From: Flavobacteriaceae bacterium UBA2765
GTDB lineage: Bacteria; Bacteroidota; Bacteroidia; Flavobacteriales; Flavobacteriaceae
Length of the DNA: 64,000 nucleotides
Reading direction: 5' to 3'
Assembly: GCA_002352665.1 (NCBI GenBank)
Contig: DEIV01000007.1
Location: 39,766-103,765, forward strand
Shown one piece after another: positions 6,529 to 56,871 of the stretch (position 1 is the first letter of the stretch; every line of letters begins with the position of its first letter). The position numbers and the translations under genes are program-made. The notes beneath the pieces were generated by a model. That model searched no databases. It worked only from the letters and a program-made list of their open reading frames with translations, and was not told the DNA's origin.

Positions 6529-8601
6529 ATGAAAAAACTTAATTTGAGTGATTTTTTAAATAAATTGTATCAAAATCATGCTTTATTATATAAAATTGTT
6601 CTTTTCATTTTAACCACTTTTGCTATAGTTTATTTATTTCCTAAAGGAGCTCATTTCAAATATGAATTTCAAAGAGGGAAACCTTGGCAATATGATAATC
6701 TTTATGCTCCGTTTGATTTCGCTATTCAAAAATCAGATCAAAAATTAGAAGAAGAAAGGCAAATCGTTATATCTAATAATAAATTATATTTTTCATATAA
6801 TAAAAATATTGTCAAAAGTGTAAAGGAAAAAGTCAATAATAAAATATCTCAAAATTTACAAGATTCTATACTAAGTAAATATAACGGTAAAAAAATTATC
6901 AGTTTTTCTGATAGATTAGTTGAGCAGGTGTACATTAAGGGATATCTTAGTAAGAATGATATCAACAAGTCCGGTAAAAAACAATTAGTTGCATTAAGAA
7001 AAGGCAATGTAATTACTGATGTAGTTTTTGATAGTTTTATTAGCAACACTAACCTAAAAGATTTTATTGAACAACAAATTAATAATTCAAAATATCCTCT
7101 GTTAAAGAGTTATTTTACCACTATTTTATTAAATGAATTAGAACCTAATGTATTTTATGATGATGACCTAACAAAAAAAATTATACAAGAAGAGTTAAGT
7201 AAAATTTCATCTACTGAAGGTTTGGTTGCTGAAAATGAGAGAATTATTTCAAAAGGAGATGTAGTTGAGGGTCATAAATTCAGAATATTAAATTCCTTAC
7301 AGAATGAATCTGAATCTCAAGTTTGGAATCAGACTAATTATTATTGGATAGTATTTGGATATATTATTCTAGTAGCATTGGCCTTGTTAATGCTATTGTT
7401 ATTTTTAAAAAAATACCGAGGCTCCATATTTGAAAACAATACAAAAGTCACTTTTATTTTTTTTAATATTCTTTTAATAGTATTGATAGTCACTTTGGTA
7501 GTTAAGTATAAAGTAGATTTTCTCTATGTAATTCCATTACCTATTTTACCTATAGTGCTGAAAGCGTTTTTTGATGCTCGTTTAGGTTTGTTTACCCATG
7601 TTTTAACAGTTTTATTATTGGGTTTTATTGTGCCTAATAGTTTTGAATTCATTTTTCTACAAATTATCGCAGGTATTATTACCATTCTTACAGTTTCTGA
7701 GTTGCATAGACGTGCCAATTTATTTATATCAATAAGTCGAATTACATTGGTATATATGGTAGCTTATTTTGCGTTTTATATAATACAAGAAGGAAATATA
7801 TTAAAAATTAATTGGCAATATTTTATTTTGTTTGCCTTGAATGGTGTTTTATCATTCCTGTCATTGTTTTTGATTTATGTATATGAAAAAACCTTTGGTT
7901 TGGTATCTGATGTATCTTTATTAGAATTGTCAAATACCAATTCAAAATTATTGAGAGAACTAGCTGAGAAAGCACCTGGTACTTTTCAACATTCTATGCA
8001 GGTTGCTAATTTGGCCGAAGCTTCAGCCAATGCTATTGGTGCAAATGCCATGTTAATTAGAACCGGTGCTTTATACCATGATATTGGTAAAATGTTAAAT
8101 CCGAAATATTTTACAGAAAATCAATCAACAAATGTCAATCCACATAACGAATTACCACCTAAAGATAGTGCTAAGATCATTATTGATCATGTAATAGATG
8201 GTATAGAATTGGCTAAAAAAAATAGATTACCTGATAGAATTATTGATTTTATTAGAACGCATCATGGAACTTCATTAGTTTATTATTTTTACAAACAACA
8301 AGAATCAGAAAACTCACAAGATTTAGATAGTAAAGATTTTTCATATAAAGGTCCAATTCCTTTTTCAAAAGAAACAGCTATATTAATGATGTGTGATGCA
8401 GCTGAGGCAGCTTCTAAAAGTTTAAAAGAACCTAGTGCACAACTTATTGATGATCTCATTGAGAAAATTGTAGCCGGTCAAATGGCGAATGGACAATTTA
8501 TGAATGCTGATATTACTTTTAAAGAAATTCAAACCATTAAAAAAGTAATTAAAAAGAAATTGAATGGTATTTACCATTTGAGGATAGAGTATCCTGAATA
8601 A
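6529..8601 (+). CDS. 7TM-HD (HDIG) membrane phosphohydrolase, PgpH-like
   Basis: Extracytoplasmic domain, a multi-TM block, then PGTFQHS, YHDIGK, HHGT and DAAEAA motifs. Confidence 0.9.
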   Translation: MKKLNLSDFLNKLYQNHALLYKIVLFILTTFAIVYLFPKGAHFKYEFQRGKPWQYDNLYAPFDFAIQKSDQKLEEERQIVISNNKLYFSYNKNIVKSVKEKVNNKISQNLQDSILSKYNGKKIISFSDRLVEQVYIKGYLSKNDINKSGKKQLVALRKGNVITDVVFDSFISNTNLKDFIEQQINNSKYPLLKSYFTTILLNELEPNVFYDDDLTKKIIQEELSKISSTEGLVAENERIISKGDVVEGHKFRILNSLQNESESQVWNQTNYYWIVFGYIILVALALLMLLLFLKKYRGSIFENNTKVTFIFFNILLIVLIVTLVVKYKVDFLYVIPLPILPIVLKAFFDARLGLFTHVLTVLLLGFIVPNSFEFIFLQIIAGIITILTVSELHRRANLFISISRITLVYMVAYFAFYIIQEGNILKINWQYFILFALNGVLSFLSLFLIYVYEKTFGLVSDVSLLELSNTNSKLLRELAEKAPGTFQHSMQVANLAEASANAIGANAMLIRTGALYHDIGKMLNPKYFTENQSTNVNPHNELPPKDSAKIIIDHVIDGIELAKKNRLPDRIIDFIRTHHGTSLVYYFYKQQESENSQDLDSKDFSYKGPIPFSKETAILMMCDAAEAASKSLKEPSAQLIDDLIEKIVAGQMANGQFMNADITFKEIQTIKKVIKKKLNGIYHLRIEYPE

Positions 8602-41793: not shown

Positions 41794-44700
41794 ATGGTTC
41801 AGTATAAAAGAATAGAAATATTAATTTGTATAACACTTACATTCTTTTGTCTTACTAAAGGTTTGGGACAAAATGAAACTGGCGAAAATTATAATGCTGA
41901 AAACGGTTTATCTTCTAATTGGGTTTCTTGTTTTCAATTAGACGATAACGGGTATCTTTGGTTAGGCACGCAAAATGGTCTTAATAGATTTGATGGAATA
42001 AATTTTAAAAAGTATTATAACAAGCCATTTGACAATAATAGTATTGCAAGTAATTGGGTACGTAATATAGTAAAGGATGAAACAGGTAATTTTTGGTTGG
42101 GAACCATTGGAGGTGGTTTGCAAAAATTTAATCCGTACAAACATACCTTTGACAAAAATTTTTTAATCGAAGGTGAACAACCAACCGTAGTTAAGAGAAT
42201 TGTTATATCTAACGATAAAATTTGGGTAGTTTCTGATAGAGGTTTGCTAATGGCTAAAAAACCTTATAAGAGTTTCAAGTATATATCAAAAAGTTTTTAT
42301 ATAAATATAACTAATCTAGGTAAAGAACATTTGATTTTGAGCAATAAGGATGGCCTTTTTTTATTAAATAAAAAGTCTAATCATATTCGTAGTATTAGCG
42401 AACAAAATCATCAGACGATTGCTGAAATCAATACAGATAATTTTTTTGTTTTAGAAAATCAATATATTTCAAAATATCAGATTAAAGATTCCTTAATTAA
42501 CAAATTAAGTAGTCATAAATTAAATCTTGATAATTCTAATTCAACCCTTTGGGGATCAATAAAGTTATTTTCTTCATCTTATGGAATATTAATCACATCA
42601 AAAGATGAAATTTTTAGATATGATGATACAACAAATAGTTTAATTCCCTTTTTTAAATATAGTAACAAATCTGATGACAATACAGTATTAAGCTACTATG
42701 AAACTAAAAAAGGAGATTTATGGATTGGCACAAAAAAAGGTGTATACCATCTTAGTAATCATAAAAAAACCTATGGAGATGCAGATAATGGTTGGCAAAA
42801 TGTAAAAGATGTAAAGGTTAGAGAAATTCAACTTGAAAACAATGTGCTTTGGTTAGCCAATGAAAAAGGACTGAAAAGTTATTACAAAAATAAAGAGCTT
42901 AAAACATACCTAAAGGGTAATATTACTGCGTTTAAAAAAGTAAATAACAATCTATATGCTGCAGGAAAAGATCAAAATGATCAAGCTAATTTTTGGCATA
43001 TTAACTTAAAAACAGGTCAAACTAAAAGTTTTGCTCTAAAAGACTTCAAGGCAGAAGGTAATATTTGGAAAATATTACCTGATAATGATAGAATTTTGAT
43101 TGCCGGACAATATAACTTTGGTTATTATAATTTAAAAGATGAAACTTTAAATTTTTTAAACAAAATTGGTAATCAAAAATTAAAATCGTTGGTTATTACC
43201 GATCTCTTAAAACATCATGATGAACTATGGATTGCAACACTTGATGGGCTTTTTATAACTAAAAACAATAGTTTTAAATCGGTAAAGCATTTAATAAGAA
43301 ATAAAAAAAATGGCTTAACCAATAATATTATTATGGATATACACAAAGATCAAAATGATAATATTTGGTTAGCAACTGAGGGAGGATTGCATCTATATAA
43401 TGAGAAAAATTCAACTTTTAAACACTGGGGAAGAAAAGATGGTCTTTTAGATGCTAAAGTACTAACTATTGAGTCTGACAATGAAGGCTCTCTTTGGTTA
43501 GGAACTAACTCATCAGGCCTCTTTAAATTTAATCCTTCAGATGAATCTTTTACCAATTTTAATAAAAAATTGGGACTAAGCTCTGATGAATTTTTAATGA
43601 GTGCTGGTTTTAGCCAAGACAATCAAATATTTTTAGGTACTGAAAACGAAATAGTAACTTTTGATGCCAGTACATTGCAACTTCCAAATAAAGATACGCT
43701 TAAGTTAAAAATAGAAACAATTCATGTTGATAAAGGTATTGATGATGAATTACTTAACCAAGAAACTCAAAATAAACTTGTGTTACCTTATAATTATGGT
43801 AATTTATCATTTCATTTTAATGCACCAAATTACTACAACCCAAAATCTACAACGTATTCGTATAAAGTAAATGGCTTATACGATTCTTGGGTTGATTTAG
43901 GGACATCAAATTCATTTTCGCTTGTCAATTTACCGCATGGTAACTATCAAATTCAAATAAAAGCTGAAAACCCGCTTTATACAACTTCAATACAATCATT
44001 TGCATTAACTATAAAGAGGGCTTTTTATAATACGTTTTGGGCTTGGATTCTTTATTCATCGACTCTTTTAAGTATACTTTTTTATTTTTGGAAACATTTT
44101 AAAAATAAATTAATCATCAAAAATAAATTAGAAAACCTAAAAGAGATCAATAGCTTAAAATCTAAAATGTATGCAGAAATATCTCACGAAATTAAAACAC
44201 CATTAACCCTAATAAAAGGAAATACTTCTTTACTTGCTAAAGAAGAAATAACTGAAGAACAAAAAAAAGCAATAGGCACTATTAAAAAAAGTTCAAAAGA
44301 AGTATTAAGTCTAGTAAATCAGATGTTAGATCTAGTCGCTATAGATGTAAAAAGATTTGAATTAAACTATGTTTCTAAAGATATTGTCATCTTCTTGAAA
44401 CAGTGTATCGCCTTATTTGAATCTAGAGCAAAAAACCAAAGAAAAGAACTTTTACTTAACAGCTCAACAGAAAGTTTAATTTCTAGTATTGATGTCCAAA
44501 ATTTAAAAAAAGTTATTTTCAATTTAATTACAAATGCTTTAAAATTTACGCCAACAAACGGAATTATAACCCTTGAATTGTTAGCTTCACCACCAAATAA
44601 TTTTATCATTAAAGTGAGTGATACCGGTAAAGGTATACAAGCGGAACATTTGCCAAGAATATTTGATAGATATTATAAAACTTTTGACTTAGAAAATAAT

Positions 44701-45669
44701 CTTGGATCTGGTATAGGTATGTCTTTAACAAAAGAGATTATCCAATTGATGGAAGGTGAAATAAAAGTTGAAAGTACTGTTAATCAAGGAACAACGTTTA
44801 CTATAACACTCCCAATTCAAAAAAGTAATGACAGTATTAACGATGAAAATAAGATAGAATTATTACCTTCTAACCCTTCATCTACCTTAAAAGAAGAATT
44901 TCAGTTAGTAGTAGTAGATGATAATGCCAGTTTGCTGGAATATTATAGTCAACTTTTAGACAATACTTACAATGTTAGCTACTTTCAGAATGGAAAAACA
45001 GCACTGCAATATGTTAAGAAAAATCATTGTGACTTCATTTTGAGTGATGCGATAATGCCCATAATGGATGGCTTTCAGCTTTGTAAAGAACTGAGAAAAG
45101 ATTGGACAACCTCTCACATACCTTTTATTATGGTCAGTGCTTTATCTAACTTAGAAAATAAAAATGAGGGATATAAAATAGGTGTTGATGCTTTTCTAGA
45201 AAAACCTTTTGAAGAGCAAGAATTATTAGCAGTAATTCATAACCTTTTAAACAAACAAAAAATAAGAGCCAGTTATTTTAAAAAGTACTTTAACGTTAAA
45301 AAAGAGGTCAATGCTTTATTAGCACCTAAAGATTTAGACTTTATTGATAAGCTACATAGCTTAGTATTCAATAAAGATAAAAATATTAATATTGAGATTC
45401 TTTCACAAGAACTTGGATTAAGTCGTAGTCAATTACACAGAAAAATTAAATCACTTACCGAAATGTCAACGACAGCCTATATTAACAATATAAGAATTGA
45501 AAAAGCAAAGCAATTACTTTTAAGTTCAAATTTAGACATAAACGAAATTGCATATCAAATAGGTTTTTCTGACGCCGGGTATTTCATAAAAACGTTTAAA
45601 AAACAGTTACATAGTACGCCTAAGAATTGGCGAGATACCTATAAAAAATCTGCTCCTGACAACAAATGA
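41794..45669 (+). CDS. Hybrid two-component system sensor/regulator (HTCS)
   Basis: Reg_prop propeller repeats (GYLWLGTQNGLNRFDG, NIWLATEGGL), Y_Y_Y domain, TM, HisKA SHEIKTPL, HATPase DTGKGI/GSGIG, REC SDAIMPIMDG and AraC HTH. Confidence 0.95.
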   Translation: MVQYKRIEILICITLTFFCLTKGLGQNETGENYNAENGLSSNWVSCFQLDDNGYLWLGTQNGLNRFDGINFKKYYNKPFDNNSIASNWVRNIVKDETGNFWLGTIGGGLQKFNPYKHTFDKNFLIEGEQPTVVKRIVISNDKIWVVSDRGLLMAKKPYKSFKYISKSFYINITNLGKEHLILSNKDGLFLLNKKSNHIRSISEQNHQTIAEINTDNFFVLENQYISKYQIKDSLINKLSSHKLNLDNSNSTLWGSIKLFSSSYGILITSKDEIFRYDDTTNSLIPFFKYSNKSDDNTVLSYYETKKGDLWIGTKKGVYHLSNHKKTYGDADNGWQNVKDVKVREIQLENNVLWLANEKGLKSYYKNKELKTYLKGNITAFKKVNNNLYAAGKDQNDQANFWHINLKTGQTKSFALKDFKAEGNIWKILPDNDRILIAGQYNFGYYNLKDETLNFLNKIGNQKLKSLVITDLLKHHDELWIATLDGLFITKNNSFKSVKHLIRNKKNGLTNNIIMDIHKDQNDNIWLATEGGLHLYNEKNSTFKHWGRKDGLLDAKVLTIESDNEGSLWLGTNSSGLFKFNPSDESFTNFNKKLGLSSDEFLMSAGFSQDNQIFLGTENEIVTFDASTLQLPNKDTLKLKIETIHVDKGIDDELLNQETQNKLVLPYNYGNLSFHFNAPNYYNPKSTTYSYKVNGLYDSWVDLGTSNSFSLVNLPHGNYQIQIKAENPLYTTSIQSFALTIKRAFYNTFWAWILYSSTLLSILFYFWKHFKNKLIIKNKLENLKEINSLKSKMYAEISHEIKTPLTLIKGNTSLLAKEEITEEQKKAIGTIKKSSKEVLSLVNQMLDLVAIDVKRFELNYVSKDIVIFLKQCIALFESRAKNQRKELLLNSSTESLISSIDVQNLKKVIFNLITNALKFTPTNGIITLELLASPPNNFIIKVSDTGKGIQAEHLPRIFDRYYKTFDLENNLGSGIGMSLTKEIIQLMEGEIKVESTVNQGTTFTITLPIQKSNDSINDENKIELLPSNPSSTLKEEFQLVVVDDNASLLEYYSQLLDNTYNVSYFQNGKTALQYVKKNHCDFILSDAIMPIMDGFQLCKELRKDWTTSHIPFIMVSALSNLENKNEGYKIGVDAFLEKPFEEQELLAVIHNLLNKQKIRASYFKKYFNVKKEVNALLAPKDLDFIDKLHSLVFNKDKNINIEILSQELGLSRSQLHRKIKSLTEMSTTAYINNIRIEKAKQLLLSSNLDINEIAYQIGFSDAGYFIKTFKKQLHSTPKNWRDTYKKSAPDNK

Positions 45670-47053: not shown

Positions 47054-47145
47054 TACATAAAATGAGCGATAACAAATAAGTTGAAACCGAAATGATTAAA
47101 ATGGGGAATCCCATCTAAACATTGAAAAACAACAAATATAAACAG

Positions 47146-48162
47146 ATGAAAAAAATAATTAAAAACATCCTACTCATCTTTATAGCTCTTTTTACAATGA
47201 GCTGTAGTGAAGATAACAATAATATTCCAGAGCAACCCACCACATCAGCATCACCTGATATATATGTTGTAGGAAAAATAAAAAACATCCCTATGCTTTG
47301 GAAAAATCGTACTGCAAGTGAACTGACGGGCGGAACCTATACAGCAGAAGCTCATTCTGTAACAGTTGCTAATAATGATGTTTACGTTGCGGGTTTTGAA
47401 AAAATAAACCTTACTAAAAAAGCTACACTGTGGAAAAATGGAAATGCTATTGATTTATCAAGTAACGCATTTACATCTTATGCCCGTTCTGTAACAGTAG
47501 TGAATAGCGATGTGTATGTTGCTGGCTTCGAGTATGAAACAAGTGGAAGTACTTTTGTAGCAAAAGTATGGAAAAATGGTGTTTCAAGCAATTTGACCAA
47601 TGGTAACCATGATGCCTTAGCAGAATCAATTAGAGTAGTAAATAATGATGTTTATGTGGCAGGTTATGAGTCAATAGGATTTGTTGATGTAGCTAAACTC
47701 TGGAAAAATGGTAGTGCAACTAATTTAACAGATGGCACCCATGAAGCTAGGGCCTACTCAGTAGCAGTAGATAATAATGATGTCTATGTGGTAGGTTATG
47801 AATTTATTGATGGTTATCATGTTGCCAAAATCTGGAAAAACGGTGTTGGAAGTAATTTAACCGATCTTAGTGTGGATGCTAAAGCCTATTCTGTAGCGGT
47901 AGAAAATAATAATGTATATGTTGCAGGTTATAAAGGTTTGGTTGCGACACTATGGATAAATGGTGAGGCTAATTCGCTATCAACAGGAAACGTACTTGGT
48001 AATGTAGCCAGATCAGTAACCTTAAATAATAGTGATGTCTATGTTGTAGGATATGTGTATGAAGAAGGTAAAACAATAGCTAAAATTTGGAAAAATGGAC
48101 AATCAAACAATTTAACAGAAAGTACTGAGGATACTGTTGCAAATTCAATTTATCTCCATTAA
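47146..48162 (+). CDS. Beta-propeller-type repeat lipoprotein
   Basis: Lipobox TMSC-SEDNN; about six ~47-aa repeats DVYV(A/V)G.E....A..WKNG...L; ATG 47146 preferred over the TTG at 47122. Confidence 0.8.
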   Translation: MKKIIKNILLIFIALFTMSCSEDNNNIPEQPTTSASPDIYVVGKIKNIPMLWKNRTASELTGGTYTAEAHSVTVANNDVYVAGFEKINLTKKATLWKNGNAIDLSSNAFTSYARSVTVVNSDVYVAGFEYETSGSTFVAKVWKNGVSSNLTNGNHDALAESIRVVNNDVYVAGYESIGFVDVAKLWKNGSATNLTDGTHEARAYSVAVDNNDVYVVGYEFIDGYHVAKIWKNGVGSNLTDLSVDAKAYSVAVENNNVYVAGYKGLVATLWINGEANSLSTGNVLGNVARSVTLNNSDVYVVGYVYEEGKTIAKIWKNGQSNNLTESTEDTVANSIYLH

Positions 48163-49897: not shown

Positions 49898-49916
49898 TTG
49901 TCGGGGTGGCAGGATT
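49898..49916 (-). repeat. att-like copy of the tRNA-Pro 3' end
   Basis: TTGTCGGGGTGGCAGGATT, identical to 53549-53567 (19 bp). Confidence 0.95.
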
Positions 49917-50076
49917 ACTCGTTTCACTCATGATCCTATAGATGGTTTAGTGCTCATTAAAAACTAAAATGCTACTGCATTTTTATTATTATTATTTTCA
50001 TTTCGGTTATGAAGCAAGCTTCAACCTCATGAAAATAAAAAAACCCATAAATCAAATGATTTATAGGTTTTTAATG
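49917..50076. other. 160-bp structured, non-coding unit between two att copies
   Basis: Hairpins at 49994-50036 (core TGAAGC-aa-GCTTCA) and 50041-50070 (core ATAAATCA-aa-TGATTTAT, followed by a U-tract on the minus strand). Confidence 0.7.
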
Positions 50077-50093: not shown

Positions 50094-50223
50094 AATTAAA
50101 ATTTCACAACCCCTTATATTTCAATGTATTAAACACTTTTAACTATATGCTGTTCACCGAATTGCACACTAAAGTTAAAAAAGAACTATTTAAAAACAAA
50201 TTTTATTCGTCTTTAAGGTTCGG

Positions 50224-50355: not shown

Positions 50356-51717
50356 TTATTTTGTCACTAATAGTTTTCCTGTTAGTATTTCATCTTTATA
50401 TTTTACACGAACAATATAAATACCTTCATTCCAGCCTGCTGTTTGTATTTTTATGCTTTTACTTTTCAGTTTGTCTTTTTTTAATTTTTGAACATTCATG
50501 AGGTCGTAAATTTCTAAATCCCATTCTCCAATTTTATCAAAAGTTGTTTCGGCTGATGACGATTTCTGATCCGTTTCTTCCGGGTTACCTTGTTCAATAG
50601 AAACTGTGGTTTCACCGTAGGTGGGGTTAGGGTAAAAACTTAGATAATAATTTTGCATTATCTGGTAAGACTCGCTATGCCAATTCCCTTCTCCACATGG
50701 GTTATGAGCCCTGACGTAAACAGTTTCATAGCCGTAACTGTAAGGAGGTACAAATACCACAGAAACCATATCTTTATCTTCCGTTTCAAAATGACTCCAA
50801 CCAGAACTGTAATTCCAGTCATAATCATCAATACCCATAACGGTTTCATCTACAGCATAAGTTTTGGTTGTAACCCACAGAACATTTTGTTCCCCAGCTA
50901 CAAAAAAATCCTGTCCACTATAATTTGAATTTTGAATATCCAATTCATTAGGTGAAGGTGGGCCTGCCCACAAGTTTTTTTGAGTAGAATAGCCAGATAC
51001 TGTTGCCTTTATCCATCCGATTCCTGAACCACTTGCAGAAAAGTTACAAGGATTCGAGCCTTGAGATGAGTTCATAGTAATATTACTACTTTTGCTCCAA
51101 GTAATAGTTGATCCACTAGGAAGATTATTCATAGTAAAAGGAGATCCTGCTGAACAAATTATATCAGGTCCAGATATTGAAGGTGGTGTGAAATTTCTTT
51201 TATAATATTTTAAAACAGAGGAATTATATGGAGTATAGGTAGGATTATGCCTCATTAAAGGCCATTGCCCCCATTTTGAATCATATTTTCCTGAAACGAC
51301 TGATTCAATTGCTGAATGATCATCACTTGCATAGGATATTTTTTCCGCCTCCGTTGAGGAGATTTCAATATAACTACCATCCTGCCAATATTTATCATCA
51401 CCAGGTGTATTCATCCAATAATTTGTACAACCTGTACATTCTGTCAAATACCATGCATACGCATGGCAATTATATGTTGTTGAAGCATCGTTTATTATTG
51501 TTGCATTAGGAAATGCCGCTGCCGCTTGAGCGTTAGTGGCAATAATCTGGCTTTGCGACATTTCATTAAATATTAATACAGTTACTGGTGTACCATTTGG
51601 AGTGTACACAGTTGTTGATTGTGCAAAAGAGCTGTTTAAAGGAAATAATAAAGCATAGAGACTTACTATTACAGATAAGTTTGTTGGTAATTTAAGGAAT
51701 TTAAAATTGGTTTGCAT
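50356..51717 (-). CDS. T9SS type A cargo protein with a putative papain-like Cys/His domain and an Ig-like linker
   Basis: Signal peptide (NSSFA-Q); YNC84HAYAW, DH134SAI and SKWG..PLMRH; C-terminal T9SS signal FYPNPT...GWNEGIYIVRV...TGKLLV. Confidence 0.85.
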   Translation of the reverse strand: MQTNFKFLKLPTNLSVIVSLYALLFPLNSSFAQSTTVYTPNGTPVTVLIFNEMSQSQIIATNAQAAAAFPNATIINDASTTYNCHAYAWYLTECTGCTNYWMNTPGDDKYWQDGSYIEISSTEAEKISYASDDHSAIESVVSGKYDSKWGQWPLMRHNPTYTPYNSSVLKYYKRNFTPPSISGPDIICSAGSPFTMNNLPSGSTITWSKSSNITMNSSQGSNPCNFSASGSGIGWIKATVSGYSTQKNLWAGPPSPNELDIQNSNYSGQDFFVAGEQNVLWVTTKTYAVDETVMGIDDYDWNYSSGWSHFETEDKDMVSVVFVPPYSYGYETVYVRAHNPCGEGNWHSESYQIMQNYYLSFYPNPTYGETTVSIEQGNPEETDQKSSSAETTFDKIGEWDLEIYDLMNVQKLKKDKLKSKSIKIQTAGWNEGIYIVRVKYKDEILTGKLLVTK

Positions 51718-52438
51718 AATCTAATATTATATTTAAGGTTTCTATATTATTGTTTAGTTCAACATCATTTATAAAGATGTTCATAAAGTTATTAGTAGCT
51801 ATTTCTTCTAAAAAAGGGGCATAGTTTTCAAGAACCATTACTCTGGCCATGATTAGTGCCTCTACTTTTAGATTAAAAATACTATATGGGTCTCCGATTC
51901 TCTTAAACTCAATATATTTATTAATTGCTTCATTTAAAAGTTCCCTTCTTTCGGCGGGAGTCAATTGTTCTATAAAAATATTTTGGGCTTGTACCATACT
52001 CATGTAAATGAAAAACAAGCTGTAATCTACTATATCAGTATTGTTAGGAGGACAAGAAGGGTTCATTAGTTTAAAACGGTTCAACATTAAGCGACCTGCC
52101 TCGTTTCTTGATTCAAGTGTAATGAATCCATTAAAATTATTCATTTGACTTTCAGTACCTTTTTGAATACTTTCAAATGCAAGCATACTACTTAACAAAG
52201 GGTAGTCCAAGCACGTTTCAACCAAGCCGTAAGTACTGATACTTGTAAGTTTATCTTCAGGTAACTGAAGGATGTCAATCATTTCTTGTCCACTAGTCAA
52301 TTCTTCCCATTCGGGCATCCCTGGCCTTACAGGAAATATATATTGGTCGGATGGCTTAGGAGAGAAAGTCAAACAAATTTCCTCATCATGCTTATTACAA
52401 GCTATCAATATGACGAATAATATATATATATATTTCAT
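51701..52438 (-). CDS. Uncharacterised lipoprotein, paralog of 52435-53154
   Basis: Lipobox LIAC; YIFPVRPGMPEW, QLPEDKLTSISTYGLVETCLDYPLL and FNG; overlaps the T9SS gene by 17 nt. Confidence 0.85.
   Translation of the reverse strand: MKYIYILFVILIACNKHDEEICLTFSPKPSDQYIFPVRPGMPEWEELTSGQEMIDILQLPEDKLTSISTYGLVETCLDYPLLSSMLAFESIQKGTESQMNNFNGFITLESRNEAGRLMLNRFKLMNPSCPPNNTDIVDYSLFFIYMSMVQAQNIFIEQLTPAERRELLNEAINKYIEFKRIGDPYSIFNLKVEALIMARVMVLENYAPFLEEIATNNFMNIFINDVELNNNIETLNIILDYANQF
52420..52433. repeat. (AT)7 simple sequence repeat in the first codons of the lipoprotein gene
   Basis: ATATATATATATAT within MKYIYIL. Confidence 0.8.
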
Positions 52439-53154
52439 TCTATAAACATTCGTCCTTTTTCCATTATATCGTCAATGATAGCCAAATCAACAAGCAGACC
52501 TTTTTCAATAAAAATACTTTTAGCAAAATTAGCTTTGTCACTCTCTAGGTTTTGCGAGGTATCAGACTCCAAAGATCTCCCCATTACCCATATCGAAATA
52601 GAGGTGCCATGTGTGCTAAAAATAGAAATATGTTTTTGCTTAGAATTATACTTATCAAAACACAATTTTACCAAGTCTTTTTTCTCAGCCACTATTAAAG
52701 TAGATAAAATAACCTTTTGGGCAAGAAAGGTTTCAATATACGAAAACTCAAATGTAAAGTTTCCTTTTTGTTCATCTGTCCATTCAGAATTATAATTATT
52801 AGGAGACATTTTCGAGTAAACTTTTATTAATTCGGTTCCTGAATCTTTTCTACTTATTAATTCTTGAATACCATTGAATTTTTTTGTCAAAGCATTAAAA
52901 CCTGTCTGCAAATCGTCATATGCGAATAGGGTGCTTAAAAGCGGATAATTTAAACATGTTGTTACTAAATCTCCAGTCGACATTGATTTTAACATTTCTT
53001 CAGGTATTTGACAAGCCAAATACATTTCTTCAGAATTATTAAATTGCTTCCATTCTTCATCTCCAGGTCTTATTGGAAAATTATAAGGTTGGCTATACAT
53101 GTTTATAGCGAACACACAAAAGAGTACAAATAGATAATTGATTTTTTCTTTCAT
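52435..53154 (-). CDS. Uncharacterised exported protein, paralog of 51701-52438
   Basis: SPI-type signal (AINMYS-Q); YNFPIRPGDEEW, QIPEEMLKSMSTGDLVTTCLNYPLL and FNG; ATGA overlap with the next gene. Confidence 0.85.
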   Translation of the reverse strand: MKEKINYLFVLFCVFAINMYSQPYNFPIRPGDEEWKQFNNSEEMYLACQIPEEMLKSMSTGDLVTTCLNYPLLSTLFAYDDLQTGFNALTKKFNGIQELISRKDSGTELIKVYSKMSPNNYNSEWTDEQKGNFTFEFSYIETFLAQKVILSTLIVAEKKDLVKLCFDKYNSKQKHISIFSTHGTSISIWVMGRSLESDTSQNLESDKANFAKSIFIEKGLLVDLAIIDDIMEKGRMFIE

Positions 53155-53300
53155 TGTTTTTAATATTTTAAAAGTTAGATTTTTAGTTTATATTTTTATA
53201 AAATATTTCCCTCTAGACAACTAATTGTTCCTAATGAGTTTCTCAACAACTTTGATTTATCTAATACAAGTTTTAGGATTCTATATTTAGAAGATAGTAA

Positions 53301-53308
53301 CAAAGTTA
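53301..53308 (-). promoter_or_regulatory. -7 promoter box for the three-gene cassette
   Basis: TAACTTTG on the minus strand, about 147 nt upstream of the 53154 start. Confidence 0.55.
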
Positions 53309-53551
53309 CTAAATTGCGAATTATAGTTTTATGACTTTTATCATAATTCAAAATCAATTGAGTGTATGAGATAAACGGTTTGGTAAACCAGTAATTTTAT
53401 TATGGTTTTCCCGTAAAAAAGATAGTTCGTTAAATAGAATTAACTAATCATAAAAAATTCTCTATATAAGCGTGTTCGTAAAACTAAGGGGGAAAAGCAA
53501 GAGGGTAACACGCTACGCGATGTTACTAATCTATAATTTACTGTTTTTTTG

Positions 53552-53626
53552 TCGGGGTGGCAGGATTCGAACCTGCGGCCTCCACGTCCCAAACGTGGCG
53601 CGATAACCGGGCTACGCTACACCCCG
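53552..53626 (-). tRNA. tRNA-Pro(TGG)
   Basis: CGGGGTGTAGCGTAGCCCGGTTATCGCG-CCACG-TTTGGGA-CGTGG..GGTTCGAATCC..CACCCCGA. Confidence 0.97.
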
Positions 53627-53717
53627 AAATGGTTATCAAACTTTTATAATAACCCTGTAACAATTTTTGTTACTTTTCAATACATCAAAGCGTAGTTTAT
53701 CCCGCATTTGATGCGGG

Positions 53718-53742
53718 GCTACACCCTGAATAGGTTATCAAA
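53718..53742 (-). repeat. Duplicated tRNA-Pro 5' end plus upstream flank
   Basis: GCTACACCCTGAATAGGTTATCAAA vs 53616-53640 GCTACACCCCGAAATGGTTATCAAA (22/25), adjacent to the hairpin CCCGCAT-ttg-ATGCGGG. Confidence 0.8.
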
Positions 53743-54033: not shown

Positions 54034-54205
54034 ATAAATTTGATGATTTACCACCTAATATTTTTATAATATTTTACAAGAAATTAGTAAATACCTTTAT
54101 TTAAGAATCTAAATAAATAATATTTAACATCTTATAAGCTTTCATTGTTCAGAATATATTATAAATTTAGTGATTATAATTAGCAATAACTTAAACAAAT
54201 TATAC

Positions 54206-54676
54206 ATGATTACATTAACAATTAATAGCAAAAAACATCAAATTGATGTAGATTCTAACATGCCCTTATTATGGGCAATTAGAGATTTTGCAGAGTTAAC
54301 AGGAACCAAATATGGTTGTGGAACAGGAGTCTGTGGTTCTTGTACCGTGTTAATTGATGGAGATCCAATCAGGTCTTGCTTAACTCCTGTTTCTGAAGTT
54401 GAAGGTAAAAGTATCCTTACTATAGAAGGTGTTGAAAATGAAAACAAAGTGTTACAAGAAGTCTGGGAAGAGCTTAATGTACCTCAATGCGGATATTGTC
54501 AATCGGGCCAAATCATATCTGCCCTAGCTTTGCTAAATAAAAATACCAATCCAACCGATAAAGATATTGACGCAGCAATGAGTGGAAATATTTGTAGATG
54601 TGGAACCTATAAAAGGATAAGAAGTGCAATCCATAAAACTGCTGAATTGAATAATGCTAAAACCGAAATAGAATGA
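54206..54676 (+). CDS. (2Fe-2S)-binding subunit, isoquinoline 1-oxidoreductase alpha (IorA)-like
   Basis: GTKYGCGTGVCGSCTV, RSCLT, QCGYCQSG and GNICRCGTY; ATG 54206 preferred. Confidence 0.93.
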   Translation: MITLTINSKKHQIDVDSNMPLLWAIRDFAELTGTKYGCGTGVCGSCTVLIDGDPIRSCLTPVSEVEGKSILTIEGVENENKVLQEVWEELNVPQCGYCQSGQIISALALLNKNTNPTDKDIDAAMSGNICRCGTYKRIRSAIHKTAELNNAKTEIE

Positions 54677-56871
54677 ACCCAATCCAAAAAATTACAAGAA
54701 GAGGTTTTATTAGAAGTGTAGGACTAGCCTCGGGTGGTTTAATCATAGCCTGTAATGTACCTTCATCAACTGAAAAGAGTCCAATGAAAAGAGCTTTTAA
54801 TGGCAAAACATTTGAACCCAATCTATTTATTCAATTAAAAGATAATGGCGATTTAATTTTAATTGCCTCACGATCTGAAATGGGGCAAGGTATTCGTACC
54901 GCATTAACGTCTGTTATTGCTGATGAAATGGATGCTGATTGGAATTTGGTAAGTGTTGAGCAAGCTATCGGGCATCCAAAATATGGAAACCAAAATACTG
55001 ATGGATCTCGAAGCGTGAGAACACTTTATGAAACAATGCGTAAAATGGGTGCTACTGCCAGAGCAATGTTAATTACAGCTGCTGCTAATAAATGGAATGT
55101 AGATCAATCTACCTTAATAACGGAAAATCATTATGTAATTGATACAACAAATAATAAAAAATTATTTTATGGTGATTTGTTACATGAAGCTGCAGAAATT
55201 GCCATTCCTGAAAATCCAATTTTAAAAGATCGAAAGGATTTTAAATATATAGGCAAAGGTCTAAAAAGTATCGATGGTGCGGGTTTTGCATCTGGCAAAC
55301 CAAAATACGGAATGGATATCAAAATACCGGAAATGAAATATGTTGCAATTACAAGGTGTCCTGTCACTTTTGGAACGGTCAAAAGTTTTGATAAAACAAA
55401 AACTATGGCCATTAACGGGGTTGTTGATGTTATTGAAATACCAAGAATTGCTAAACCCTTTGGAGTTTTAGGTGGTGTGGTAGTTATCGCAAATAATACA
55501 TGGGCTGCTTTTAAAGGAAAAGAAGCATTAGAAATAGTATGGGATAACGGAAACAATAAAGGATATAATAGTGATGCATATGCGAAAATGATAACCGATA
55601 ACGTACATAAAAAAGGGAAAGAAATACGGAATGATGGTAATGTACATAAGGCATTTAAAAATGCTGCACATATTGTTGAAAGTACTTATAATTTGCCGCA
55701 TTTAGTTCATGCACCTATGGAAGTACCAAATGCAACCGCTATAATTAAAGACGGTAAATGTGAAGTTTGGGCACCAACTCAAGACCCACAAACAGCAAGG
55801 AAAGAAATAGCTGACTATTTAGAAATAGATGAAGAAAATGTGATTGTAAATATTACTTTTTTAGGTGGTGGATTTGGTAGAAAATCTAAACCCGATTTTA
55901 TGGTAGAAGCTGTGGCTGTTGCTAAAGCAATAAATGCTCCTGTTCAGGTGATATGGACCCGTGAAGATGATATTCAGCACAGCTATTACCATGCAGTTAG
56001 TGCACAATATATGAAAGCTTCATTAGATGATAATGGAAATGTTACCGGTTGGCTGCATAGGGTAGCCTATCCATCTATTACATCAACATTTGCTCCTGAT
56101 ACGGGTTATGCTGCAGGCTTTGAATTTGGTATGGGCTTAACAAATATTCCTTATCAAATAGATAATGTACGTTGCGAAAATGGTAAAGCTCTTGCCCATG
56201 TAAGAATAGGATGGTTCCGTTCAGTAATTAATATCATACAAAGTTTTTCTGTAAATATTTTTGTTGATGAATTGGCTGCCAAAGCGGGTAAAGATTCATT
56301 ACAATTTAGATTAGATTTAATAGGAAAAGACCATATAGTAGAATCAGATTCCGGATATCATTTTGATAATGCAAAACTGAAAAACGTATTAAAAACTGCT
56401 GCAAAAAATGCAGATTATGGTAAAAAGCTACCTGAGGGACACGGAATGGGAATAGCCATTCACTATAGTTTTTTAACCTATGTAGCATCTATTGTAGAAG
56501 TTTCTGTTATTGATGGCAAGCTAAAAATTCACAAAATATCTTCAGTTATTGATTGTGGTACGGCAGTAAATACGGATACCATTAAATCTCAAATGGAAGG
56601 TGCAGCAATTTTTGGTATGTCTTTGGCTTATTATGGTAAAATAACGGCTAAAGAAGGTGCCATTGAACAAAGTAATTATCACGATTACCAAATGCTACGC
56701 ATTCATCAAACTCCTGATATTAATGTAGAAATTATTAGTAGCCATGAGAAACCAACAGGAGTTGGAGAACCTGGCGTTCCTCCAATAGCACCGGCCATAA
56801 TTAATGCTATTTATAATGCTACAGGTAAACGTTATTATTCGTTACCATTATCAGATCATGGATTGGTTTAG
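54673..56871 (+). CDS. Molybdopterin-binding subunit, xanthine dehydrogenase family (IorB-like), Tat-exported
   Basis: Twin-Arg ITRRGFIRSVG; RSEMGQG, TDGSRS, HAPME, LGGGFGRK and GVGEPGVPP. Confidence 0.92.
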   Translation: MNPIQKITRRGFIRSVGLASGGLIIACNVPSSTEKSPMKRAFNGKTFEPNLFIQLKDNGDLILIASRSEMGQGIRTALTSVIADEMDADWNLVSVEQAIGHPKYGNQNTDGSRSVRTLYETMRKMGATARAMLITAAANKWNVDQSTLITENHYVIDTTNNKKLFYGDLLHEAAEIAIPENPILKDRKDFKYIGKGLKSIDGAGFASGKPKYGMDIKIPEMKYVAITRCPVTFGTVKSFDKTKTMAINGVVDVIEIPRIAKPFGVLGGVVVIANNTWAAFKGKEALEIVWDNGNNKGYNSDAYAKMITDNVHKKGKEIRNDGNVHKAFKNAAHIVESTYNLPHLVHAPMEVPNATAIIKDGKCEVWAPTQDPQTARKEIADYLEIDEENVIVNITFLGGGFGRKSKPDFMVEAVAVAKAINAPVQVIWTREDDIQHSYYHAVSAQYMKASLDDNGNVTGWLHRVAYPSITSTFAPDTGYAAGFEFGMGLTNIPYQIDNVRCENGKALAHVRIGWFRSVINIIQSFSVNIFVDELAAKAGKDSLQFRLDLIGKDHIVESDSGYHFDNAKLKNVLKTAAKNADYGKKLPEGHGMGIAIHYSFLTYVASIVEVSVIDGKLKIHKISSVIDCGTAVNTDTIKSQMEGAAIFGMSLAYYGKITAKEGAIEQSNYHDYQMLRIHQTPDINVEIISSHEKPTGVGEPGVPPIAPAIINAIYNATGKRYYSLPLSDHGLV

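Follow-up and report, generated by a model that had tools for sequence, protein, structure and literature searches.

A predicted type IX-secreted cysteine hydrolase and its two proposed guard proteins in a flavobacterial genome are the split form of a widespread two-domain protein

In Tannerella forsythia, surface lipoproteins known as potempins are encoded immediately upstream of the KLIKK peptidases, which leave the cell through the type IX secretion system (T9SS), and they block the active-site cleft of these enzymes and protect the producer surface (PMC9890683). Here we describe a trio of genes within a 64,000-nucleotide (nt) stretch of contig DEIV01000007.1 of Flavobacteriaceae bacterium UBA2765 (the window, meaning the whole stretch that was analysed), in which a predicted T9SS-exported enzyme (gene 3) is preceded by two paralogous proteins that we call guards, the first probably soluble (gene 1) and the second a lipoprotein (gene 2). 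A secreted hydrolase with a cognate prodomain or inhibitor is a known general kind of arrangement; the apparent novelty lies in the guard family itself, in its occurrence in cis as well as in trans, and in the two copies that are routed differently.

The KLIKK–potempin pairs are the closest experimentally characterised analogue. As in those loci, a lipoprotein gene stands immediately upstream of a T9SS hydrolase gene in the same orientation (genes 2 and 3). The parts themselves are different: potempins are β-barrels of 98–132 residues (with an oligonucleotide/oligosaccharide-binding fold or eight strands), whereas the guard is an α-solenoid of ~220 residues with no detectable relation to them; the KLIKK enzymes are metallo- and serine peptidases, whereas gene 3 is modelled as a papain-fold cysteine enzyme; and potempins have neither a soluble periplasmic paralog nor fused forms. 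Inhibition is established for the potempins and is proposed here. By analogy, the window locus may work like the potempin system, of which it is not a member.

Secreted cysteine hydrolases can also carry inhibitory N-terminal prodomains, examples being the prodomain of the gingipain RgpB and the pro-region of protein-glutaminase. Fused relatives of the trio share this zymogen layout, and in Parabacteroides the signal peptide, guard, catalytic domain and T9SS tail follow one another within one chain. Unlike these prodomains, the guard in the window is encoded apart from the enzyme, by two genes whose products are targeted differently. It exceeds the catalytic domain in size and has no known processing site, and the folds are unrelated to those of gingipains (C25).

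A third comparison is with the amidase–immunity pairs of type VI secretion systems (T6SS; Tae1/Tse1–Tsi1, Tae3–Tai3 and Tae4–Tai4), where a papain-like cysteine amidase of the NlpC/P60-CHAP class is likewise accompanied by an adjacent gene for a Sec-exported periplasmic protein or lipoprotein that occludes the active site, and where orphan protective genes also occur. In contrast to these, the delivery predicted for gene 3 relies on a Sec signal together with a T9SS C-terminal domain and does not involve the T6SS, the guard is encoded upstream and is often fused to the enzyme, and the structural similarity reaches only Z 3–5. The guard family showed no relation to Tai or Tsi proteins in profile and fold searches, with no such family matched in Pfam or NCBIfam and no Tai or Tsi among the best 50 entries listed in either of two PDB fold searches. 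Finally, enzymes of the same catalytic fold class (7v6s/8xud, 8i2f, 4q4t, 4cgk and 8auc are among the matches) have a helical element or a separate protein that sits on the active site or regulates access to it, as in MepS–NlpI, LytE–IseA and the coiled coils of RipA, PcsB and Cg1735. NlpI, IseA and the coiled coils have no sequence or specific fold relation to the guard, and MepS-, LytE- and RipA-type enzymes remodel their own cell wall, unlike the predicted T9SS export of gene 3. For a likeness to C10 proteases with staphostatin-like inhibitors, which the first-pass annotation of this DNA had mentioned, the general fold searches gave no pointer, and no search was aimed at it. Literature searches on DUF7689 (the enzyme's family, see below), on T9SS-linked CHAP or NlpC/P60 enzymes with dedicated partners, and on T9SS peptidoglycan hydrolases with immunity returned nothing relevant, and no publication on the trio was found.

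One module, fused or split

The trio is the split form of a widespread protein composed of two domains, a guard and a catalytic domain of the DUF7689 type. DUF7689 stands for a domain of unknown function, and the name carries no functional meaning. The first-pass annotation had read the three genes as a candidate new system; the trio is not self-contained, as the same two parts are fused in other phyla. In four AlphaFold database (AFDB) entries, the N-terminal portion matches the gene 2 model and the C-terminal portion next to it matches the enzyme model. In fused homologs (from Micromonospora, Thermoanaerobaculia and others), the catalytic domain lies at approximately residues 245–420, and the N-terminal 240–290 residues align with the guard family over 220 columns at an hhalign probability of 100% (E 3.2e-49). 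Such fused chains are found in Actinomycetota, Acidobacteriota, Chloroflexota, Myxococcota and some Bacteroidales, they occupy at least three separate places on a tree of the partner domains, and one metagenomic protein of 1175 residues (P0100) mirrors the trio by running guard, guard and enzyme in one chain. Two other proteins (P0095 and P0166) are guard–guard fusions without enzyme. The fused Micromonospora proteins P0046, P0047 and P0050 have signal peptides in which T-R-R precedes a hydrophobic stretch, similar to signals for twin-arginine translocation; if this motif is real, the guard–enzyme chain of Micromonospora would be exported already folded.

The first-pass annotation had proposed to check gene neighbourhoods for an obligate co-occurrence of the enzyme and its partners, and from the enzyme side the linkage is indeed tight. 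In a scan that took one genome per species, at least 539 species genomes encode a relative of the DUF7689-type enzyme, and the best 80 loci, all from different species, span Bacteroidota, Actinomycetota, Acidobacteriota, Chloroflexota, Fibrobacterota, Myxococcota, Ignavibacteriota, Patescibacteria, Bacillota and Pseudomonadota. The guard is directly upstream or fused in 75 of these 80 loci: one guard gene precedes the enzyme on the same strand in 37, two guard genes do so in 14, and the guard is fused to the enzyme in 24. It is downstream in one locus and absent from four (L014, L070, one partial copy and one at a contig edge). Wherever a two-guard locus has complete N-termini, the order is the same as in the window, with a protein carrying a signal peptidase I (SPI)-type signal first, the lipoprotein second and the enzyme last. 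Among the individual loci, a metagenome-assembled genome of Eubacteriales has two guard–enzyme pairs in tandem (L074:3477–6465). Three T9SS proteins, each with a guard gene upstream, are multi-enzyme cargo proteins; after the DUF7689 domain, one has a gingipain-type Peptidase_C25 domain (L038:1988–4453) and two have a right-handed β-helix (L055:5893–8271 and L072:5854–8040).

From the guard side, co-occurrence with the enzyme is not obligate. A metagenome scan seeded with a guard motif gave 44 loci, of which 21 have the enzyme, 10 lie on contigs that end too soon to judge, and 13 have at least 900 nt of room and no recognisable enzyme. The guard family is thus mostly but not always found with the enzyme (21 and 13, respectively, of the 34 assessable loci), the situation of a family living mainly without it, which would have spoken against the first-pass reading, was not observed, and the orphan copies are real. 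Two loci (L098 and L099) hold a lone intact lipoprotein guard 79% identical to gene 2, two others (L119 and L120) have both guard types with the enzyme missing, and in a locus retrieved by exact-sequence look-up (P0230) a SocA_Panacea gene comes after two guard genes and the enzyme is absent. In one further locus a guard without enzyme stands with a C-terminal remnant of a gene-1-type copy (L101), and in another a transposase-like open reading frame (ORF) follows two guards in the enzyme's place (L130). Within the phylum the module is sparse: the guard profile matched 3 of 300 other genomes, one of them marginally (E 9e-4), and in the two solid cases the enzyme lies just downstream. A search of a congeneric genome (G223) with the guard profile did not find the module.

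The two guard types of the window are old. Besides the window, 13 loci carry this first-position gene, with a signal of the same type, and Maribacter orientalis DSM 16471 has the complete trio (L001). On the tree of partner domains, of which only the topology was used while signal types were read from the N-termini of the loci, the second-position lipoprotein genes of 13 loci, which come from Flavobacteriia, Chitinophagia and Bacteroidia, form one group with gene 2 (SH-aLRT 93), and gene 1 clusters with the first-position genes. Since genes 1 and 2 group by operon position, the guard duplication is old and maintained.

The enzyme, the guards and their modelled complex

From the N-terminus onwards, gene 3 has a signal peptide, the catalytic domain, a region resembling PKD and, last, a sorting domain of T9SS type A. 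This agrees with the Ig-like linker and T9SS C-terminal signal that the first-pass annotation had proposed: PKD_6 (PF19408) matches two stretches (E 1.1e-7), the best being residues 283–345, and the C-terminus scores 31.2 bits with Por_Secre_tail (PF18962, cut-off 27) and 27.5 bits with TIGR04183 (cut-off 23). By inspection, the N-terminus has a basic n-region, a hydrophobic core and the end ...SFA/Q, with predicted cleavage before Q33. The same genome encodes the T9SS translocon protein SprA (a 2398-residue ORF, PF14349 E 1e-163). With its sorting domain, its Sec signal and SprA in the genome, gene 3 fits the pattern predicted for T9SS type A cargo.

The whole gene 3 protein scores only 14.0 bits with DUF7689 (PF24738, E 0.085), and the catalytic domain alone scores 22.6 bits, exactly the gathering cut-off (E 1.8e-4). 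Among 57 homologs of the catalytic domain, 52 match DUF7689 at E <= 1, with a best value of 9.5e-6. We would therefore regard the domain, on these borderline Pfam scores, as a divergent DUF7689 subfamily. A PDB sequence search with its profile gave zero matches at E <= 10. An AlphaFold2 (AF2) model of residues 34–176, made from the alignment of the 57 homologs, has a predicted local distance difference test score (pLDDT) of 97.5 and places C84 where a helix starts (51–60 in model numbering) and H134 where a strand begins. In a structural alignment against 48,161 PDB representatives, the best 25 matches are all NlpC/P60 or CHAP proteins (Z 6.1–4.5 with 89–100 residues aligned), and they include MepS, LytE, SagA, RipA/B and CwlO as well as the T6SS amidases Tse1 and Tae3. 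The AFDB neighbours of the model include entries named DUF7689, CHAP, Peptidase C51 or NlpC/P60, with template modelling (TM) scores by query of 0.93–0.69 for the top eleven and of 0.69–0.79 for the entries named CHAP, C51 and NlpC/P60. Neighbours in the ESM Atlas agree with those in AFDB, and the name DUF7689 recurs there. Because this hit list is so consistent, Z values of ~6 being moderate, we assign the modelled domain to the NlpC/P60-CHAP kind of Cys/His amidohydrolases, with a papain-like fold. The papain-like arrangement of C84, H134 and SKWG that the first-pass annotation had noticed in gene 3 is therefore correct at the level of the fold, and the N-terminal domain falls within the NlpC/P60-CHAP class.

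Y82, N83, C84, H85, W101, D113, S115, H134, S135, S147, K148, W149, H157 and P163 are invariant or nearly so in the 57 homologs. Fully invariant there are YNC84H.YAW, DH134SA, S147KWG and H157, among them C84 and H134, on whose conservation the first-pass reading depended. In 78 domains from the genomes of other species, H134, S135, S147, K148, W149, H157 and P163 are all invariant; these domains were fetched with the motif YNCH.YAW, and only positions outside the motif count as independent.

Genes 1 and 2 are 29% identical across 204 residues (E 2e-30), which bears out the paralogy claimed for them in the first-pass annotation, as do their N-termini its claim that they are routed differently (an SPI-type signal in gene 1 and a lipobox in gene 2). 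Searches of Pfam and NCBIfam with both proteins matched no family. Among 1.84 billion cluster representatives, the guard profile nevertheless matches at least 4131 at E <= 1e-3, of which 3113 reach E <= 1e-10, each match counting as one cluster at 50% identity. The AF2 model of gene 2 is all-helical (pLDDT 91.8), its structural neighbours are generic ARM/HEAT-like α-solenoids, and Foldseek against the PDB found nothing at E <= 0.001. A known inhibitor or immunity fold was also sought with VIA-align and was set aside, as the search gave generic ARM/HEAT-like matches (Z <= 9.5) within the noise for helical proteins.

The lipobox of gene 2 is LIAC with the lipidated position at Cys14, followed by N-K-H-D-E-E, and its close homologs are nearly all lipoproteins. 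Of 25 such homologs, 12 have C-X-K-(D/E)2 exactly and 23 have acidic residues after the cysteine. This motif is the lipoprotein export signal that suffices for surface exposure in Capnocytophaga, where its position is critical (Lauber et al., PMC5080379), and the residues after Cys14 of gene 2 resemble it. Gene 1 has an SPI-type signal with predicted cleavage ...MYS/QPYNF, before Q22, and its product is probably soluble, judging from this N-terminus. A glutamine at +1 after signal-peptide cleavage is the Q-rule of Bacteroidetes (PMC5837995), and the predicted +1 Gln of genes 1 and 3 fits it.

We modelled the complex of enzyme residues 34–176 with the mature gene 2 protein in three runs alongside three controls. 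The complex scores 0.87 against 0.33 for the best control. Of 78 solved complexes, 51 attain that mark, as do 2 of 108 mismatched pairs. At least 95% of contacts are common to the three runs, and the partner has a pLDDT of 92. On the enzyme side, the modelled interface includes residues 83–85 (N, C84, H), D133, W149–W152 and 158–163, which is the face bearing the catalytic residues. On the guard side it includes P39–G40 and W44 (R-P-G..W), P80–L81 (Y-P-L-L) and residues 86–91. No other position of the guard family is as conserved as W44 (85 of 85 sequences) and P80 (84 of 85), and the interface anchors of gene 2 (P, G, W, P, L and A) are retained in gene 1. The guard is thus predicted by the model to cover the Cys84 face of the enzyme, and the binding between partner and catalytic domain on which the first-pass reading hinged has, for gene 2, a model that passes its controls. 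No similar solved complex was found by a PDB search with the catalytic profile or by Foldseek with both models (E <= 0.001), for which reason the model is unlikely to have passed by reproducing a known structure.

Proposed role of the guard and its alternatives

The fusions seen in many lineages, the strictness of the gene order and the confident placement of the guard over the catalytic face in the model together point to the guard as a dedicated binding partner of the enzyme. The first-pass reading of a secreted hydrolase with dedicated partner proteins is thereby supported. With moderate confidence, we propose that the guard domain keeps a secreted papain-fold hydrolase latent and that in the window it is supplied in trans, as the split form of the module. 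The module would have two parts, a DUF7689 cysteine amidohydrolase and an α-helical guard of ~220 residues that lies over its active-site face. We infer the inhibition, the compartments, the substrate and the biological role as follows. The enzyme would cross the inner membrane by Sec, fold in the periplasm and be exported by the T9SS by means of its C-terminal domain. The soluble guard of gene 1 would hold it inactive in the periplasm during transit. The guard of gene 2 would be an outer-membrane lipoprotein, probably flipped to the cell surface, and there it could neutralise enzyme that stays on or returns to the producer surface, as potempins do. The split guards would themselves stay in the envelope, since they have their own export signals and no T9SS tail. 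The substrate would most likely be an amide bond, either of peptidoglycan stem peptides or of proteins that are secreted or lie at the surface. Among the possible kinds of partner, an occluding guard is favoured because C84 is covered in the model, because the fused guard sits where secreted cysteine hydrolases have their N-terminal prodomain, and because orphan copies suit a protective protein rather than a subunit or a chaperone. The fusion in other phyla, likewise, favours a prodomain-like inhibitor over a chaperone, without proving it.

Several observations weigh against this proposal. The 13 assessable guard loci without a recognisable enzyme are not explained by a pure prodomain role. 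The complex model fits inhibition and activation alike, and the predicted guard interface as a whole does not exceed the remainder of the protein in conservation (mean entropy 2.61 vs 2.57 bits, p 0.71), with only the anchors W44, P80 and P39 standing out. On the enzyme side, the PDB fold matches are moderate (Z ~6), Foldseek against the PDB gave weak matches with none at E <= 0.001, and three candidates for the third catalytic residue, S147 (in SKWG, at the position of papain Asn175 in N-S-W-G), H157 and D113, are all invariant. As for the compartments, the signal of gene 2 itself (C-N-K-H-D-E-E) has its acidic pair one position past the optimum, and a peptidoglycan substrate would leave a surface-exposed guard without an obvious job.

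The alternative that survives best, though we hold it to be unlikely, keeps the same capping biochemistry and changes its purpose. Here the enzyme would be an interbacterial toxin, a T9SS-released peptidoglycan amidase or endopeptidase directed at competitors, and genes 1 and 2 would provide immunity, also against the toxin of neighbours. The catalytic domain has the fold class of Tse1/Tae1, Tae3 and Tae4 (3vpi Z 5.2, 4hz9 Z 4.5 and 4bi3 Z 3.2), all of which are paired with periplasmic immunity proteins. The intact guards without enzyme (L098, L099, L119, L120 and the P0230 locus) resemble orphan immunity genes, but they may be mere decay products. The sporadic distribution (3 of 300 genomes of the phylum, one of them marginal, and none in G223), the position of the window copy within a tRNA-linked mobile remnant and the tandem guard–enzyme pairs of L074 would also suit a toxin. 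However, the guard is fused to the enzyme in 24 of 80 loci, T9SS-tailed ones included, and immunity proteins are not normally fused to their toxins; there is no known route for a T9SS-released protein into the periplasm of a Gram-negative target; and the catalytic domain and guard do not take the form of polymorphic cassettes attached to a conserved scaffold for delivery. A still broader reading, to which we give slightly less credence, would make the guard a phylum-spanning family of DUF7689 inhibitors that serves as prodomain in cis and as immunity protein in trans, with the split form being a T9SS antibacterial amidase with immunity in two compartments and orphan immunity genes, the first such effector–immunity system tied to the T9SS.

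It is more doubtful that the guard is a required subunit instead of an inhibitor, be it a factor of the intramolecular-chaperone type, a secretion escort, or a recognition or activating subunit that completes the cleft. Fusion and strict upstream linkage fit a subunit equally well as an inhibitor, ARM/HEAT-like α-solenoids are a common scaffold for binding partners, and the modelled interface, which touches the catalytic residues, could represent completion of the cleft; moreover, the helical lipoprotein NlpI is an adaptor, and not an inhibitor, of the NlpC/P60 enzyme MepS (8xud, 8xup). Against this stand the four enzyme loci without a guard (two of them being the partial copy and the contig-edge locus), the persistence of guards without enzymes, and the confident modelling of the catalytic domain alone as a complete papain-like fold. 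If the guard were a stoichiometric subunit of an exported enzyme, it would also be difficult to see why two guards are routed to different compartments. That the three secreted proteins have no functional link and are chance neighbours in a junk island is scarcely credible: the window copy does lack an integrase, RNA evidence and a characterised homolog, but in 75 of 80 loci, spread over about ten phyla, the guard is next to the enzyme or fused to it, the guard and the fused forms match with an hhalign E of 3e-49, the three ORFs are intact with invariant catalytic residues, and the complex model passes its controls.

If the guard does keep the enzyme latent, as we propose, two large uncharacterised families, the DUF7689-type enzymes and the guards, would receive a role at once, and one inhibitor domain would be seen to serve as a prodomain within the enzyme chain or else as periplasmic and surface proteins with targeting of their own. 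The proposal bears on the general question of envelope self-protection, both in transit and afterwards, in diderm bacteria whose folded hydrolases leave through the T9SS. To our knowledge, such self-protection has so far been worked out only for the gingipain prodomains and the Tannerella potempins. The enzyme would also be a candidate bacteriolytic or proteolytic exoenzyme of marine flavobacteria that comes with a ready-made specific inhibitor.

The tRNA-Pro island and its surroundings

Positions of the trio and of the features around it are collected in Table 1. The three genes are coupled as the first-pass annotation had described, on the minus strand: genes 1 and 2 overlap in an ATGA that holds the stop of the one and the start of the other, and genes 2 and 3 overlap by 17 nt, both read directly in the sequence. 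The module is present as a single copy in its own genome. Public sequencing runs matching the DNA of the locus comprise one DNA run, a marine metagenome, and zero RNA runs, and scans of the locus for promoters and terminators gave counts not above those of shuffled sequence.

Table 1. Positions of the guard–enzyme genes, their domains and the flanking repeats in the window
Feature	Position	Strand	Basis
Gene 1, soluble guard paralog (probable), 239 aa	52435..53154	-	ORF
Gene 2, lipoprotein guard paralog, 245 aa	51701..52438	-	ORF
Gene 3, T9SS-exported enzyme (predicted), 453 aa	50356..51717	-	ORF
Gene 3 catalytic domain, aa 34-176, 143 aa, DUF7689-like	51190..51618	-	Pfam, AF2
Gene 3 Ig-like / PKD_6 spacer, ~aa 183-345	50683..51171	-	PF19408
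Gene 3 T9SS type A C-terminal sorting domain, aa 362-451	50365..50634	-	PF18962, TIGR04183
tRNA-Pro (TGG), 3' end = right-hand repeat	53551..53626	-	ARAGORN
att-like repeat copy 3, within tRNA-Pro 3' end	53551..53567	n/a	exact match
att-like repeat copy 2, left border of 3.5-kb segment	50077..50093	n/a	exact match
att-like repeat copy 1, 160 bp left of copy 2	49900..49916	n/a	exact match
Non-coding leader, tRNA-Pro to gene 1	53155..53550	-	53447-53537 resembles sequence beside the G313 integrase gene

The trio lies in a 3.5-kb segment next to a tRNA-Pro gene. The first-pass annotation had described this segment as bounded by exact repeats of the tRNA-Pro 3' end; the repeats are exact, but there are three copies and not two. 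The repeat, GTCGGGGTGGCAGGATT, is the 3'-terminal 17 nt of the tRNA, and by chance no copy is expected (0 in 100 shuffles). The third copy suggests either two successive integrations or a decayed tandem element. As claimed, the trio is the whole cargo, with no integrase within the segment and no other ORF of substance between 50094 and 53550. In G313, a complete genome of the same genus, an identical copy of the 17-nt core stands next to a tyrosine integrase (Arm-DNA-bind_5, Phage_int_SAM_5 and Phage_integrase), which is flanked by sequences that match the two inner ends of the segment in the window (50094–50219 and 53447–53537) at 84% and 87% identity, respectively. Because of this core, the integrase and the matching ends, the window segment looks like the remnant of a tRNA-Pro element that has lost its integrase and gained the trio. 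The G313 element (L092, G313:C1, 1045–2847) appears to be a related integrative element with different cargo: its core stands beside the integrase gene (1225–2502), after which come a response regulator and a C39-peptidase ATP-binding cassette exporter of the bacteriocin-exporter type. A copy of the core with 2 mismatches lies at 8410–8426, and there is no tRNA near this element. In G223 no empty tRNA-Pro site was identified, as only the tRNAs align and the flanks are conserved neither in DNA nor in protein. The island had been taken by the first-pass annotation as part of the system; since a tRNA lies within ~6 kb of only 1 of the 23 other loci scanned (L072), we regard it as incidental context.

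Further traces surround the segment. Between repeat copies 1 and 2, on the minus strand, a hairpin with a 15-bp stem is followed by a T-run (50039–50072). Some 100 bp upstream of tRNA-Pro, beside a short hairpin, the sequence 53690–53742 contains an 88% copy of the first 11 nt of the tRNA with 14 nt of its 5' flank, and looks like the leftover 5' fragment of a second tRNA-Pro. The distance from tRNA-Arg to tRNA-Pro is 12.4 kb in the window and ~6 kb, with unrelated content, in G223; given these differences in length and content, this stretch is a variable region. After the tRNA-Arg, the window encodes a hybrid two-component regulator of 1291 residues (41794–45669; Reg_prop, Y_Y_Y, HisKA, HATPase_c, Response_reg and HTH_AraC). 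At 47122–48162 it encodes a lipoprotein of 346 residues with about seven repeats of a ~40-residue unit (…DVYVAGY…WKNG…) and no Pfam family, of which G313 has several tandem paralogs. To the right of tRNA-Ser (54170–56871), an ORF of 168 residues with a [2Fe-2S]-type cysteine pattern overlaps the start of an ORF of 732 residues. By eye, these two ORFs resemble the small and large subunits of a molybdopterin-dependent dehydrogenase of the aldehyde oxidase or isoquinoline oxidoreductase type.

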